Assembly: GCF_003334765.1 (NCBI RefSeq)
Contig: NZ_QOWT01000005.1
DNA from: Escherichia coli
GTDB lineage: Bacteria; Pseudomonadota; Gammaproteobacteria; Enterobacterales; Enterobacteriaceae
Reading direction: 5' to 3' (one strand)
DNA: 64,000 bases
Shown: piece after piece, positions 9,585-55,950 of the stretch
How the letters are laid out: each line of letters starts with the position of its first letter
How positions within the stretch are numbered: position 1 is the stretch's first letter
Made by a program: the position numbers and the translations under genes
The notes under the pieces: model-generated
Seen by the model: only the letters and a program-made list of their open reading frames with translations
Told to the model about the DNA's origin: nothing
Database searches by the model: none

Positions 9585-9673
9585 TTTTACAGCTGTTAAA
9601 CCAAACGGTTATAACCTGGTCATACGCAGTAGTTCGGACAAGCGGTACATTTTAATAATTTAGGGGTTTATTG

Positions 9674-10495
9674 ATGAGCGATATGCACTCGCTGCTGATA
9701 GCGGCAATATTGGGTGTGGTCGAAGGATTGACAGAATTTCTGCCGGTATCCAGCACGGGCCATATGATTATTGTCGGTCACTTGTTGGGGTTTGAGGGCG
9801 ACACGGCGAAAACCTTTGAAGTTGTGATCCAGTTAGGATCAATTCTGGCGGTAGTAGTGATGTTCTGGCGGCGTCTGTTTGGCCTGATTGGCATCCACTT
9901 TGGCCGCCCGTTGCAGCACGAAGGTGAAAGCAAAGGTCGTTTAACGCTGATCCACATTTTGCTGGGGATGATTCCGGCGGTGGTATTGGGGCTGTTGTTC
10001 CACGACACGATTAAGTCATTGTTTAACCCGATAAATGTGATGTATGCGCTGGTCGTTGGCGGTTTGTTGCTGATTGCCGCCGAATGCCTGAAGCCGAAAG
10101 AGCCGCGTGCGCCGGGTCTTGATGATATGACCTATCGTCAGGCATTTATGATTGGCTGTTTCCAGTGTCTGGCGCTGTGGCCGGGTTTCTCCCGTTCCGG
10201 GGCGACCATTTCAGGTGGGATGCTGATGGGGGTGAGCCGTTACGCTGCTTCCGAGTTTTCGTTCCTGCTGGCGGTGCCGATGATGATGGGCGCAACGGCG
10301 CTCGATCTCTACAAAAGCTGGGGCTTCCTGACAAGCGGCGATATCCCGATGTTTGCCGTTGGGTTTATCACCGCTTTTGTGGTGGCGCTGATAGCGATTA
10401 AAACCTTCCTGCAATTGATTAAGCGCATTTCGTTTATCCCGTTCGCCATTTATCGCTTTATTGTGGCGGCTGCGGTGTATGTCGTGTTCTTTTAA
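9674..10495 (+). CDS. uppP: Undecaprenyl-diphosphate phosphatase
   Basis: ATG at 9674 after [37 protein letters not shown]... 273-aa polytopic membrane protein (bacA). Confidence 0.92.
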
Positions 10496-10536
10496 TTGAG
10501 GAATAGTGTCGGATGCTTGGCGTTGTCAACGATTGC

Positions 10537-10661
10537 GTAGGCCGAATAAGGCGTTCACGCCGCATCCGGCAATCAACGCCTGATGCGACGCTTGCGCGTC
10601 TTATCAGGCCTACAACTGTCGTTGACATGTAGCCGGATAAGGCGTTTACGCCGCATCCGGC
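10537..10661. repeat. REP/BIME cluster: three REP-like palindromic units (10537-10570, 10578-10613, 10629-10661)
   Basis: GCCGGATAAGGCGTTTACGCCGCATCCGGC-type REP sequences in alternating orientation, flanked by inverted copies of GTTGTCAACG, between convergent uppP and cca. Confidence 0.8.
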
Positions 10662-10675
10662 AAAATGCCCAATAC

Positions 10676-46495: not shown

Positions 46496-48754
46496 ATGAG
46501 CGATATGGCAGAGCGCCTTGCGCTACATGAATTTACGGAAAACGCCTACTTAAACTACTCCATGTACGTGATCATGGACCGTGCGTTGCCGTTTATTGGT
46601 GATGGTCTGAAACCTGTTCAGCGCCGCATTGTGTATGCGATGTCTGAACTGGGCCTGAATGCCAGCGCCAAATTTAAAAAATCGGCCCGTACCGTCGGTG
46701 ACGTACTGGGTAAATACCATCCGCACGGCGATAGCGCCTGTTATGAAGCGATGGTCCTGATGGCGCAACCGTTCTCTTACCGTTATCCGCTGGTTGATGG
46801 TCAGGGGAACTGGGGCGCGCCGGACGATCCGAAATCGTTCGCGGCAATGCGTTACACCGAATCCCGGTTGTCGAAATATTCCGAGCTGCTATTGAGCGAG
46901 CTGGGGCAGGGGACGGCTGACTGGGTGCCAAACTTCGACGGCACTTTGCAGGAGCCGAAAATGCTGCCTGCCCGTCTGCCAAACATTTTGCTTAACGGCA
47001 CCACCGGTATTGCCGTCGGCATGGCGACCGATATTCCACCGCATAACCTGCGTGAAGTAGCTCAGGCGGCAATCGCATTAATCGACCAGCCGAAAACCAC
47101 GCTCGATCAGCTGCTGGATATCGTGCAGGGGCCGGATTATCCGACTGAAGCGGAAATTATCACTTCGCGCGCCGAGATCCGTAAAATCTACGAGAACGGA
47201 CGTGGTTCAGTGCGTATGCGCGCGGTGTGGAAGAAAGAAGATGGCGCGGTGGTTATCAGCGCATTGCCGCATCAGGTTTCAGGTGCGCGCGTACTGGAGC
47301 AAATTGCTGCGCAAATGCGCAACAAAAAGCTGCCGATGGTTGACGATCTGCGCGATGAATCTGACCACGAGAACCCGACCCGCCTGGTGATTGTGCCGCG
47401 TTCCAACCGCGTGGATATGGATCAGGTGATGAACCACCTCTTCGCTACCACCGATCTGGAAAAGAGCTATCGTATTAACCTTAATATGATCGGTCTGGAT
47501 GGTCGTCCGGCGGTGAAAAACCTGCTGGAAATCCTCTCCGAATGGCTGGTGTTCCGCCGCGATACCGTGCGCCGCCGACTGAACTATCGTCTGGAGAAAG
47601 TCCTCAAGCGCCTGCATATCCTCGAAGGTTTGCTGGTGGCGTTTCTCAATATCGACGAAGTGATTGAGATCATTCGTAATGAAGATGAACCGAAACCGGC
47701 GCTGATGTCGCGGTTTGGCCTTACGGAAACCCAGGCGGAAGCGATCCTCGAACTGAAACTGCGTCATCTTGCCAAACTGGAAGAGATGAAGATTCGCGGT
47801 GAGCAGAGTGAACTGGAAAAAGAGCGCGACCAGTTGCAGGGCATTTTGGCTTCCGAGCGTAAAATGAATAACCTGCTGAAGAAAGAACTGCAGGCAGACG
47901 CGCAAGCCTACGGTGACGATCGTCGTTCGCCGTTGCAGGAACGCGAAGAAGCGAAAGCGATGAGCGAGCACGACATGCTGCCGTCTGAACCTGTCACCAT
48001 TGTGCTGTCGCAGATGGGCTGGGTACGCAGCGCTAAAGGCCATGATATCGACGCGCCGGGCCTGAATTATAAAGCGGGTGATAGCTTCAAAGCGGCGGTG
48101 AAAGGTAAGAGCAACCAACCGGTAGTGTTTGTTGATTCCACCGGTCGTAGCTATGCCATTGACCCGATTACGCTGCCGTCGGCGCGTGGTCAGGGCGAGC
48201 CGCTCACCGGCAAATTAACGTTGCCGCCTGGGGCGACCGTTGACCATATGCTGATGGAAAGCGACGATCAGAAACTGCTGATGGCTTCCGATGCGGGTTA
48301 CGGTTTCGTCTGCACCTTTAACGATCTGGTGGCGCGTAACCGTGCAGGTAAGGCTTTGATCACTTTACCGGAAAATGCCCATGTTATGCCGCCGGTGGTG
48401 ATTGAAGATGCTTCCGATATGCTGCTGGCAATCACTCAGGCAGGCCGTATGTTGATGTTCCCGGTAAGCGATCTGCCGCAGCTGTCGAAGGGCAAAGGCA
48501 ACAAGATTATCAACATTCCATCGGCAGAAGCCGCACGTGGAGAAGATGGTCTGGCGCAACTGTACGTTCTGCCGCCGCAAAGCACGCTGACCATTCATGT
48601 TGGGAAACGCAAAATTAAACTGCGTCCGGAAGAGCTACAGAAAGTCACTGGCGAACGTGGACGCCGCGGTACGTTGATGCGCGGTTTGCAGCGTATCGAT
48701 CGTGTTGAGATCGACTCTCCTCGCCGTGCCAGCAGCGGTGATAGCGAAGAGTAA
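46496..48754 (+). CDS. parC: DNA topoisomerase IV subunit A
   Basis: 752-aa ORF with GyrA-like N-terminal domain (active-site Tyr region AAMRYTE). Confidence 0.96.
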
Positions 48755-48987
48755 TATGCCGGGGAGGGCGCTGTTTCCTCCCGCTTGCAAGGAACGCCGG
48801 ATGAAACGTTAAGTCGTCATCCGGCAGCGTATTCAACCCCCGGAAACGATAAAAATTCCCTTGAAACCGTTGTTTATTCATGCGTTGCGATTAACAATAC
48901 GCTTTTCCAGAGAGCGGCTTTTAACAATGCCCTAACCTGATTTCAGGTGACGTACAATGCCAGTCTCTCAGACCTTCAGAGGGTGTT

Positions 48988-55846: not shown

Positions 55847-55950
55847 ACGTTCCTCCTTTATATGAACTCACCGGAGCAGGCTCCGGTGAGGTGTTGTGAA
55901 CTTAAGTCTGGACGAAATGCCCGAAAACGAAAGTTTGAGGCGTAAAAAGC

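Follow-up and report, generated by a model that had tools for sequence, protein, structure and literature searches.

Between the convergent genes bacA (= uppP), which encodes undecaprenyl-pyrophosphate phosphatase and is linked to bacitracin tolerance, and cca, which encodes the tRNA CCA-adding enzyme, Escherichia coli carries a group of palindromes, and the locus raises the question of what kind of element this is, how it came to lie there, and what it might do to the two genes. In the stretch of DNA analyzed here (64,000 nucleotides; hereafter designated the window), positions 10304–10904 match E. coli K-12 MG1655 without a difference, as the reverse complement of NC_000913.3 3202900–3203500. 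The list of open reading frames, taken together with the annotation of K-12 and other genomes, places a 180-nt spacer (10496–10675) between the two genes. A preliminary description of this DNA had noticed, between convergent uppP and cca, a REP/BIME cluster of three units, imperfect palindromes in alternating orientation within 125 bp. The palindromes were indeed found at 10537–10661, entirely within the spacer and hence extragenic, and alignment with the REP family gave clear matches, the units sharing 94–97% identity with Y and Z2 of the REP325 array and the gathering score of the Rfam naRNA4 model being exceeded. Its sequence thus identifies the feature as the REP element resident in the K-12 spacer between bacA (uppP) and cca, an element of an ordinary, known kind; the RefSeq feature table carries no repeat feature at the bacA–cca junction. 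Two small open reading frames lying over the cluster (73 aa on the − strand, 10458–10679; 72 aa on the + strand, 10583–10801) were set aside as mechanical, being REP sequence that runs into the opposing genes. The coordinates of the individual features are collected in Table 1.

Table 1. Positions in the window of the three REP units, their linkers and predicted cleavage motifs, and the flanking landmarks (a slash marks the cleavage position within a motif).
Feature	Position	Strand	Basis and remarks
bacA/uppP stop codon TAA	10493-10495	+	ORF 9671-10495; annotated bacA in K-12 and other genomes
REP0 remnant GTCGGATGC (fourth palindrome)	10508-10516	.	Allele alignments
Inverted repeat, left arm TGTCAACGA	10524-10532	.	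Repeat search; 4 nt outside the GTAG of REP1
Predicted TnpA-REP cleavage motif GGCC/TACG, at REP1	10536-10543	-	Motif scan
REP1, Y type	GTAG 10537-10540; stem-loop 10541-10570	+	33/35 identical to the REP325 Y unit
Head-to-head linker AATCAAC	10571-10577	.	7 nt
REP2, Z2 type, inverted	10578-10613	-	36/37 identical to the REP325 Z2 unit
Predicted TnpA-REP cleavage motif CC/TGAT, at REP2	10579-10584	+	Motif scan
Predicted TnpA-REP cleavage motif GGCC/TACA, at REP2	10607-10614	+	Motif scan
Tail-to-tail linker AACTGTCGTTGACAT	10614-10628	.	15 nt; includes the right arm of the 9-nt inverted repeat
Inverted repeat, right arm TCGTTGACA	10619-10627	.	Repeat search; within the REP2-REP3 linker
REP3, Y type	10629-10661	+	34/35 identical, plus one gap, to the REP325 Y unit
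cca stop codon TGA	10676-10678	-	ORF 10676-11914 on the - strand; annotation
Rho-dependent termination region of the bacA transcript	about 10991	+	Converted from K-12 3202814; low resolution, the source comparing 800-nt windows

The reference Y and Z2 units were taken from the 12-unit REP325 array of K-12. By comparison with these, REP1 and REP3 are of the y type and REP2 is of the z2 type, the identity of each unit with the other REP325 type being only 27–28 of 37. An ungapped scan of the real 64 kb with the same units, allowing up to 10 mismatches, returned this cluster and one weak site at 48792 and nothing else, and gave 0 matches in 50 shuffles of the window. All three units are imperfect palindromes of 30–40 nt with two mismatched stem positions, and they fold into a 7-bp lower stem, a 2x2 mismatch, an upper stem of 4–5 bp and a 4-nt loop, with a GTAG tetranucleotide 5' of the palindrome foot (present in REP2 as CTAC at 10610–10613, that is, as GTAG on the − strand). 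A Stern-type REP consensus with a 5-nt loop found no match; the fault lay with the pattern and not with the sequence, since the loop spacing here is 4 nt. Moreover, a 301-nt query spanning the K-12 junction matched a median of at least 29 places per E. coli genome, and at least 40 in 1,623 records, as is expected of a highly repeated sequence.

The single hairpins range from −14 to −22 kcal/mol, and the RNA of the spacer is highly structured on both strands (z = −8.3). REP1, with −14 kcal/mol on the + RNA and −18.4 kcal/mol on the − RNA, carries in its stem one G-to-A change that is absent from other strains, and has one extra A.C mismatch; REP2 reaches −21.7 and −22.1 kcal/mol and REP3 −21 and −21.7 kcal/mol on the respective strands. 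In REP3, a 1-nt deletion fuses the GTAG to the stem (GTAGCC versus GTAGGCC), the last G of the tetranucleotide (10629–10632) being at the same time the first base of the stem, and the unit would, on this sequence, be a slightly defective copy. The 30-mer GCCGGATAAGGCGTTTACGCCGCATCCGGC, by which the palindromes had originally been represented, is exactly 10632–10661.

The REPs of E. coli are described as imperfect palindromes of 30–40 nt that have GTAG on their 5' side and fall into the types y, z1 and z2; they are assembled either into BIME-1, in which z1 and y are joined by a long, conserved linker (L), often with a site for IHF, or into BIME-2, composed of tandem copies of z2 and y with short linkers variable in length and sequence and with a copy number that varies among strains (Ton-Hoang et al. 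2012, PMC3333891). The present cluster alternates between y and z2, has linkers of 7 and 15 nt, and occurs in alleles with one unit, three units, or three units and a partial fourth, so that it shares with BIME-2 (Bachellier/Gilson; PMC3333891) the two unit types, the short variable linkers and the strain-variable number of units at one locus; the difference is that it comprises only one and a half units. It is therefore classified from its sequence as one and a half BIME-2-like units in the order y (+) z2 (−) y (+). As the linkers were compared with those of REP325 and not with the named S, s, l and r motifs, the label "atypical BIME" is possible as well. With BIME-1 (RIB, RIP) it has in common the Y unit and the pairing of inverted REPs at gene 3' ends, whereas the z1 unit, the long L linker and the IHF consensus that characterize those elements are all missing from it, which places it outside BIME-1. 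The binding of IHF, which had been named for such elements, is accordingly a point of the preliminary description that needs correcting: IHF goes with the long-linker BIME-1 and is not expected at a BIME-2-like cluster of Y and Z2 units with a 7-nt head-to-head linker, and a motif scan found no exact IHF site (WATCAANNNNTTR) but only an IHF-like site with one mismatch. Gyrase binding, stabilization or termination of mRNA, and targeting by REP-associated transposases, the other functions named in that description, are properties of the REP family at large as given in the literature.

The closest reference element is REP325, the 12-unit BIME-2 of the yjdM–yjdN spacer of K-12 and the source of naRNA4. 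The two elements resemble each other in both unit types and their alternation, in matching Rfam RF02564, and in being 3'-UTR elements without a U-tract. They differ in the number of units (12 in REP325 versus 3) and in position, REP325 lying inside an operon and the present cluster between convergent genes. The linkers differ as well, the head-to-head linker of 7 nt, AATCAAC, standing against 13 nt in REP325, AGTCGGCACCGTT, and the tail-to-tail linker of 15 nt against 17 nt, GGAGGGTGCGGGAATTT; furthermore, REP1 and REP3 of the cluster have each undergone one degenerating change. A likeness also exists to the REPIN doublets that are mobilized by RAYTs (Bertels and Rainey, PMC3116915), in that REP1, REP2 and a 9-nt repeat can form one long hairpin of about −60 kcal/mol. 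However, each genome that has the REP1–REP2 doublet with these linkers has it only once, and the doublet thus gives no sign of moving as a unit.

The 9-nt repeat itself had been described as an outer inverted repeat that brackets the whole cluster. A perfect inverted repeat of this length does exist, but it encloses REP1 and REP2 only, and REP3 lies outside it. A perfect inverted repeat of at least 9 nt arose in 3.9% of shuffles of the 180-nt spacer. An 8/9 version is kept in E. albertii, E. whittamii and Escherichia sp. E1V33, and this conservation marks the repeat as an old part of the element rather than a product of chance. Both arms lie 4–5 nt outside a GTAG, and in Escherichia sp. MOD1-EC7003 the sequence of the left arm serves as the tail-to-tail linker between an intact upstream palindrome and a truncated REP1. 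The two arms are most simply read as oppositely oriented pieces of tail-to-tail linker. The upstream palindrome, of which REP0 in the window is the remnant, is intact directly after bacA in other E. coli alleles as well as in MOD1-EC7003. A templated block change, by which the left arm of K-12 would have been copied from the tail-to-tail linker, was considered and dropped, as the outgroups E. albertii, E. whittamii and E1V33 share the left flank; between K-12 and these outgroups the left arm shows only one C-to-A change, which perfects the repeat. With both arms included, the long REP1:REP2 hairpin (about −60 kcal/mol) compares with about −36 to −40 kcal/mol for the two separate hairpins together.

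How the cluster came to occupy this spacer was approached by a survey of relatives, in which one genome per species was scanned for the BacA C-terminus; it yielded 78 Enterobacteriaceae loci, a sample biased to BacA proteins ending in AAVYVVFF. A convergent open reading frame with a Cca-like end was present at 74 of the 78 loci. The spacer measured 10–14 nt in 44 of these 74 species (Enterobacter, Klebsiella, Kluyvera, Leclercia, Lelliottia, Kosakonia and others), 18–20 nt in 4, and 33–109 nt in 23, mostly Citrobacter and Salmonella, where it holds one or two palindromes of the GTAG family; a length of 180–182 nt was confined to three Escherichia species, all of them Y-Z2-Y. This distribution of lengths indicates that the cluster is a clade-specific insertion into a spacer that was ancestrally minimal (about 10 nt). 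The REPs at the bacA–cca junction of Salmonella and Citrobacter belong to the same family, with GTAG/CTAC tails and GCCGGAT... stems about 10–13 nt past the bacA stop, but they have fewer units, other linkers and no Z2 unit, and the three-unit array was seen only in Escherichia. The Y-Z2-Y array is present with the same linkers in E. albertii, E. whittamii and E. sp. E1V33, and on these sequences the three-unit array is older than E. coli.

Within E. coli, the comparison of strains that had been proposed as a check bore out the expected variability: the junction is highly polymorphic in REP content, with at least five alleles among 5,426 complete genomes. REP-like matches occur in all 5,426, and most of the 301-nt K-12 junction in only 2,837. 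The types were defined from fetched example loci and their alignment, and the counts attached to them are approximate. The K-12 type (180 nt) has the order Y-Z2-Y, and a 187-nt allele has the same order with an extra partial palindrome directly after bacA; a 50-mer over the tail-to-tail linker is single copy and present in 2,701 of the 5,426 genomes. A 90-nt allele has a single Y, and what separates it from K-12 is precisely one Z2-linker-Y unit of 91 nt, flanked by direct Y repeats; it accounts for roughly 136 genomes (2,837 minus 2,701). A further type of 79–80 nt, which includes ST131, has one divergent palindrome, which starts 12 nt past the bacA stop and gives way to unique sequence rich in AT; this type, or its first half, was found in 1,159 genomes (about 21%). 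Finally, the 162-nt allele of BL21 and strain C (1,260 genomes, about 23%) is without REP and contains instead a G-rich palindromic element of another dispersed family. About 170 E. coli genomes fall outside these classes. In the 187-nt allele, the upper stem of REP3 shows a compensatory change from G-C to A-T.

The polymorphism and the short spacers of relatives lead to the view that the cluster is a selfish or neutral passenger, that is, a trace of REP/BIME proliferation tolerated at a harmless site and without a selected role in the expression of bacA or cca. Features of a substrate of TnpA-REP (RAYT), as defined in PMC3333891, are present as predicted sites, namely a GTAG with a bulged REP, and C/T sites on the inverted REP and linker (GGCC/TAC and CC/TGAT; Table 1). 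As the E. coli enzyme accepts no change in the GTAG (PMC8266576), we infer from its fused GTAG that REP3 would be poorly recognized. Besides these motifs, the spacer of about 10 nt in the 44 related species, the coexistence of at least five very different E. coli alleles, including the loss of two units and replacement by another repeat, and the exact one-unit difference between the K-12 and single-Y alleles all speak for a passenger. On the other side stand the retention of Y-Z2-Y with its linkers in the three other Escherichia and the compensatory change in the REP3 stem of one allele; moreover, the hairpins are transcribed into both 3' UTRs whatever their origin, and the passenger view concerns origin and is compatible with a modest effect in the 3' UTR. 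It is a serious alternative as regards origin and maintenance, although as an account of the cluster as a whole we consider it somewhat unlikely. The ancestral spacer of ~10 nt presumably received copies of the E. coli REP family, with the REP-associated tyrosine transposase (TnpA-REP/RAYT) and recombination between units accounting for their spread and reshuffling.

Whether the inserted hairpins act on the flanking genes depends on the transcripts that reach them. A scan of 10300–10900 found no promoter-like site and, on both strands, 0 sites resembling an intrinsic terminator, with no T-run after any unit, and by this result the readings of the cluster as a promoter or an intrinsic terminator were rejected. 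The latter deserves separate mention, as a bidirectional, Rho-independent terminator common to both convergent genes would suit the strong GC-rich hairpins on both strands, and 78 REPs lie within 306 predicted bidirectional terminators (bioRxiv 10.64898/2026.03.23.713779). However, in addition to the empty scan, transcription on the bacA strand runs past the cluster to a Rho-dependent site, and the junction does not appear among the listed rows of the terminator table of the same preprint, so that a terminator of this type is very improbable here. The Rho-dependent region is placed on the K-12 minus strand at 3202814, in antisense orientation to cca, with reads upstream and downstream of 55 and 11 without bicyclomycin and of 102 and 113 with bicyclomycin (Rho score 5.54, p = 1.9e-7; Adams et al. 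2021, PMC7815308, supplementary file 2). Since this region lies antisense within cca, transcription from bacA crosses the REP cluster and is stopped about 330 nt beyond it. No Term-seq 3' end was found within the spacer in the tables searched (PMC7815308). With a spacer that has no U-tract terminator, both convergent transcripts would enter the cluster.

These results lead to the reading that we prefer, with a probability of about 0.6: the cluster is a K-12 REP element of insertion origin, the hairpins of which would cap the mRNAs of bacA and cca against 3' exonucleases and damp read-through. In each of the convergent transcripts, the 3' UTR would contain two or three hairpins of high stability. 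On the bacA side, RNA polymerase would pass the cluster and be stopped by Rho roughly 330 nt farther on, inside antisense cca; the 3'-to-5' exonucleases PNPase and RNase II would then trim the transcript back until blocked by the REP hairpins, which would set the stable 3' end of the mRNA, and the cca transcript would be treated likewise on the opposite strand. A direct attenuation of read-through by the hairpins may come in addition. Precedents exist for such a sequence of events: where Rho ends transcription, PNPase and RNase II shorten the transcript as far as a U-less stem-loop, REPs being among such loops, which then gives a stable 3' end (PMC6061677), and REP325 acts as a partly Rho-dependent terminator or attenuator and as a stabilizer of the upstream mRNA. 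A REP between convergent genes goes with higher expression of the pair, about 30% of convergent spacers having one (bioRxiv 10.64898/2026.03.23.713779). Against capping stand the lack of any listed Term-seq end in the spacer, the low resolution of the Rho signal, and the finding of the same preprint that terminal REPs show no overall association with longer mRNA half-lives. Most relatives, moreover, do without a hairpin in a spacer of 10 nt, and E. coli itself has another repeat in about 23% of genomes and a single divergent palindrome in about 21%; such relatives and alleles imply that the cluster is dispensable and that its effect is perhaps small or nil.

Beyond capping, a slower termination of cca translation and the binding of gyrase on the DNA would come in as secondary options. 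The former follows from the geometry of the cca mRNA, in which the stem of REP3 begins 14 nt after the cca stop; at the other end, 41 nt separate the bacA stop from the GTAG of REP1 downstream. Stalling of terminating ribosomes is reported for REPs less than 16 nt from a stop codon (Liang et al. 2015, as summarized in PMC12306157), and the terminating ribosome might thus run into the REP3 hairpin and stall, with cleavage of the mRNA and rescue by tmRNA, so that less Cca would be made. The measured 14 nt falls inside the reported range, the hairpin has −21.7 kcal/mol on the cca strand, and the spacing from REP3 to the cca stop is kept at 14 nt in the 187-nt and 90-nt alleles. But 14 nt is at the edge of that range, the fold of the full length lets the 5' arm of REP3 pair elsewhere, and in about 45% of E. 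coli genomes the surroundings of the cca stop are free of REPs; a translational brake of this kind is therefore regarded as unlikely.

At the level of DNA, an array of the BIME-2 type might bind DNA gyrase and relieve the positive supercoils that build up between convergent units. Gyrase is reported to bind and cleave the class of arrays to which the Y and Z2 composition corresponds (Espeli and Boccard 1997, cited in PMC2817692 and PMC3333891), and the cluster does lie between convergent genes. Such a role is nevertheless decidedly unlikely, as the array is short, with only 1.5 units, its linkers are not those of REP325, the reference BIME-2 element, and the predominant effect of REPs is placed at the transcript level (bioRxiv 10.64898/2026.03.23.713779).

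The match to Rfam RF02564 (naRNA4; 79.3 bits versus a gathering score of 59.5, E = 1e-13, 10540–10610, + strand) could further suggest that the Y-Z2 pair is processed to a small RNA that, with HU, condenses the chromosome, and the Z2 unit is identical to that of naRNA4 except for one end base. But the model, having been built on the Y-Z2 pair of REP325, is in effect one of a generic Y-Z2 pair, and weaker matches occur in every REP-bearing allele; in addition, no promoter-like site adjoins the cluster. In work that includes an author of the original study, no stable ternary complex of HU, cruciform DNA and naRNA4 was found, nor any nucleoid compaction by REP325/naRNA4 or REP–REP contacts (bioRxiv 10.64898/2026.03.23.713779). 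A reading drawn from the Rfam name is largely contradicted already, and a function like that of naRNA4 is extremely improbable for this locus.

Collectively, the cluster is of a known kind: catalogues of the REP elements of K-12 MG1655 go back decades, and what is observed here in unit types, order and strain variability agrees with the published description of BIME-2-like elements; its importance beyond correct annotation is small. The junction has some value as a clean natural test case for questions of REP function, since it combines convergent genes, no intrinsic terminator, a mapped Rho-dependent stop downstream and one unit within the reported 15-nt range of a stop codon with several natural alleles that shift, remove or replace the hairpins and with many related species whose spacer is an empty 10 nt. 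In the K-12-like alleles, which make up about half of E. coli, a REP hairpin stands 14 nt after the cca stop and none is near the bacA stop; in the 79–80-nt alleles a palindrome stands 12 nt after the bacA stop and none is near cca; and the BL21 type lacks REPs altogether. That this allelic series works as a natural switch for the expression of cca and bacA among strains is quite improbable. If, however, both the 15-nt rule of ribosome stalling and the capping by hairpins hold at this locus, strains of E. coli would differ heritably in their output of Cca and BacA/UppP, and such differences would arise without any change in coding sequence or promoter.

Comparison of the bacA-cca junction among E. 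coli alleles revealed variation both within the third unit of the REP cluster (REP3) and in the type of element that occupies the spacer. Relative to K-12, REP3 in the 187-nt allele shows a compensatory change of one upper-stem pair, in which G-C is replaced by A-T (AAGGCG/CGCC to AAGACG/CGTC), together with one change in the loop, and in REP3 of E. albertii the upper-stem change is only half-compensated.

About 21% of E. coli genomes, including ST131, carry at this junction 79–80-nt alleles with a single divergent palindrome, GTCGGATATGACGC-TTGT-GCGTCTTATCCGAC, which starts 12 nt past the bacA stop codon and has a degenerate tail (CCTAA versus CCTAC). The palindrome is followed by AT-rich unique sequence, indicating that the stop-proximal REP lies at the bacA side and not at the cca side. 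In a further 1,260 of the 5,426 complete E. coli genomes (~23%), a BL21-type spacer of 162 nt takes the place of the REP cluster and contains a G-rich palindromic element, GGGAGAGGGCCGGGGTGGGGG ... CCCTCACCCTAACCCTCTCCC. This element belongs to a dispersed family other than REP, with 5–11 copies per genome at ~85–88% identity, one of which is located between gcvP and ygfF in a K-12-like strain (L010). The family is probably similar to the 'box C' or RSA repeats.

Junction alleles and other elements of the window
Feature	Location	Strand	Remark
REP3, K-12	window 10632-10661
REP3, 187-nt allele	L002:300-329
79–80-nt alleles	L004:157-235, L006:155-234, L008:408-487
BL21-type spacer	L005:157-318 (E. 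coli BL21)		counterpart of window 10496-10675
Lone REP-like hairpin	window 48796-48824	+	GCCGGATGAAACGTTAAGTCGTCATCCGGC
SIB antitoxin RNA, tandem pair	window 18530-18679, 18905-19054	+	Rfam scan, gathering level
FMN riboswitch	window 27751-27899	+	Rfam scan, gathering level
ES173 sRNA	window 55885-55948	-	Rfam scan, gathering level

Besides the bacA-cca cluster, the sole REP-like site in the 64 kb is a lone hairpin situated ~40 nt past the stop codon of a 752-aa ORF (46496-48754), which shows 10 mismatches to the Y unit and has neither GTAG nor a T-run. With only this one site beyond the cluster, as compared with a K-12 mean of ~8 per 64 kb (584 REPs per genome; PMC3333891), the window is REP-poor. 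In the RefSeq feature table of K-12, the counterpart of the spacer (NC_000913.3, 3203130-3203309) bears no repeat_region; K-12 REP elements have been catalogued outside that table, with 355 annotated (PMC4550694). The other RNA elements found in the window, that is, the SIB pair, the FMN riboswitch, and ES173, are expected K-12 features with no relation to the REP cluster.

Beyond E. coli, the convergent bacA and cca stop codons are only 10–14 nt apart in 44 of the 74 Enterobacteriaceae species examined (loci L011-L088, one genome per species), and these short spacers, usually with GCCC at the end, contain no hairpin. Both the bacA and the cca transcripts must therefore terminate within the opposing gene in these species.
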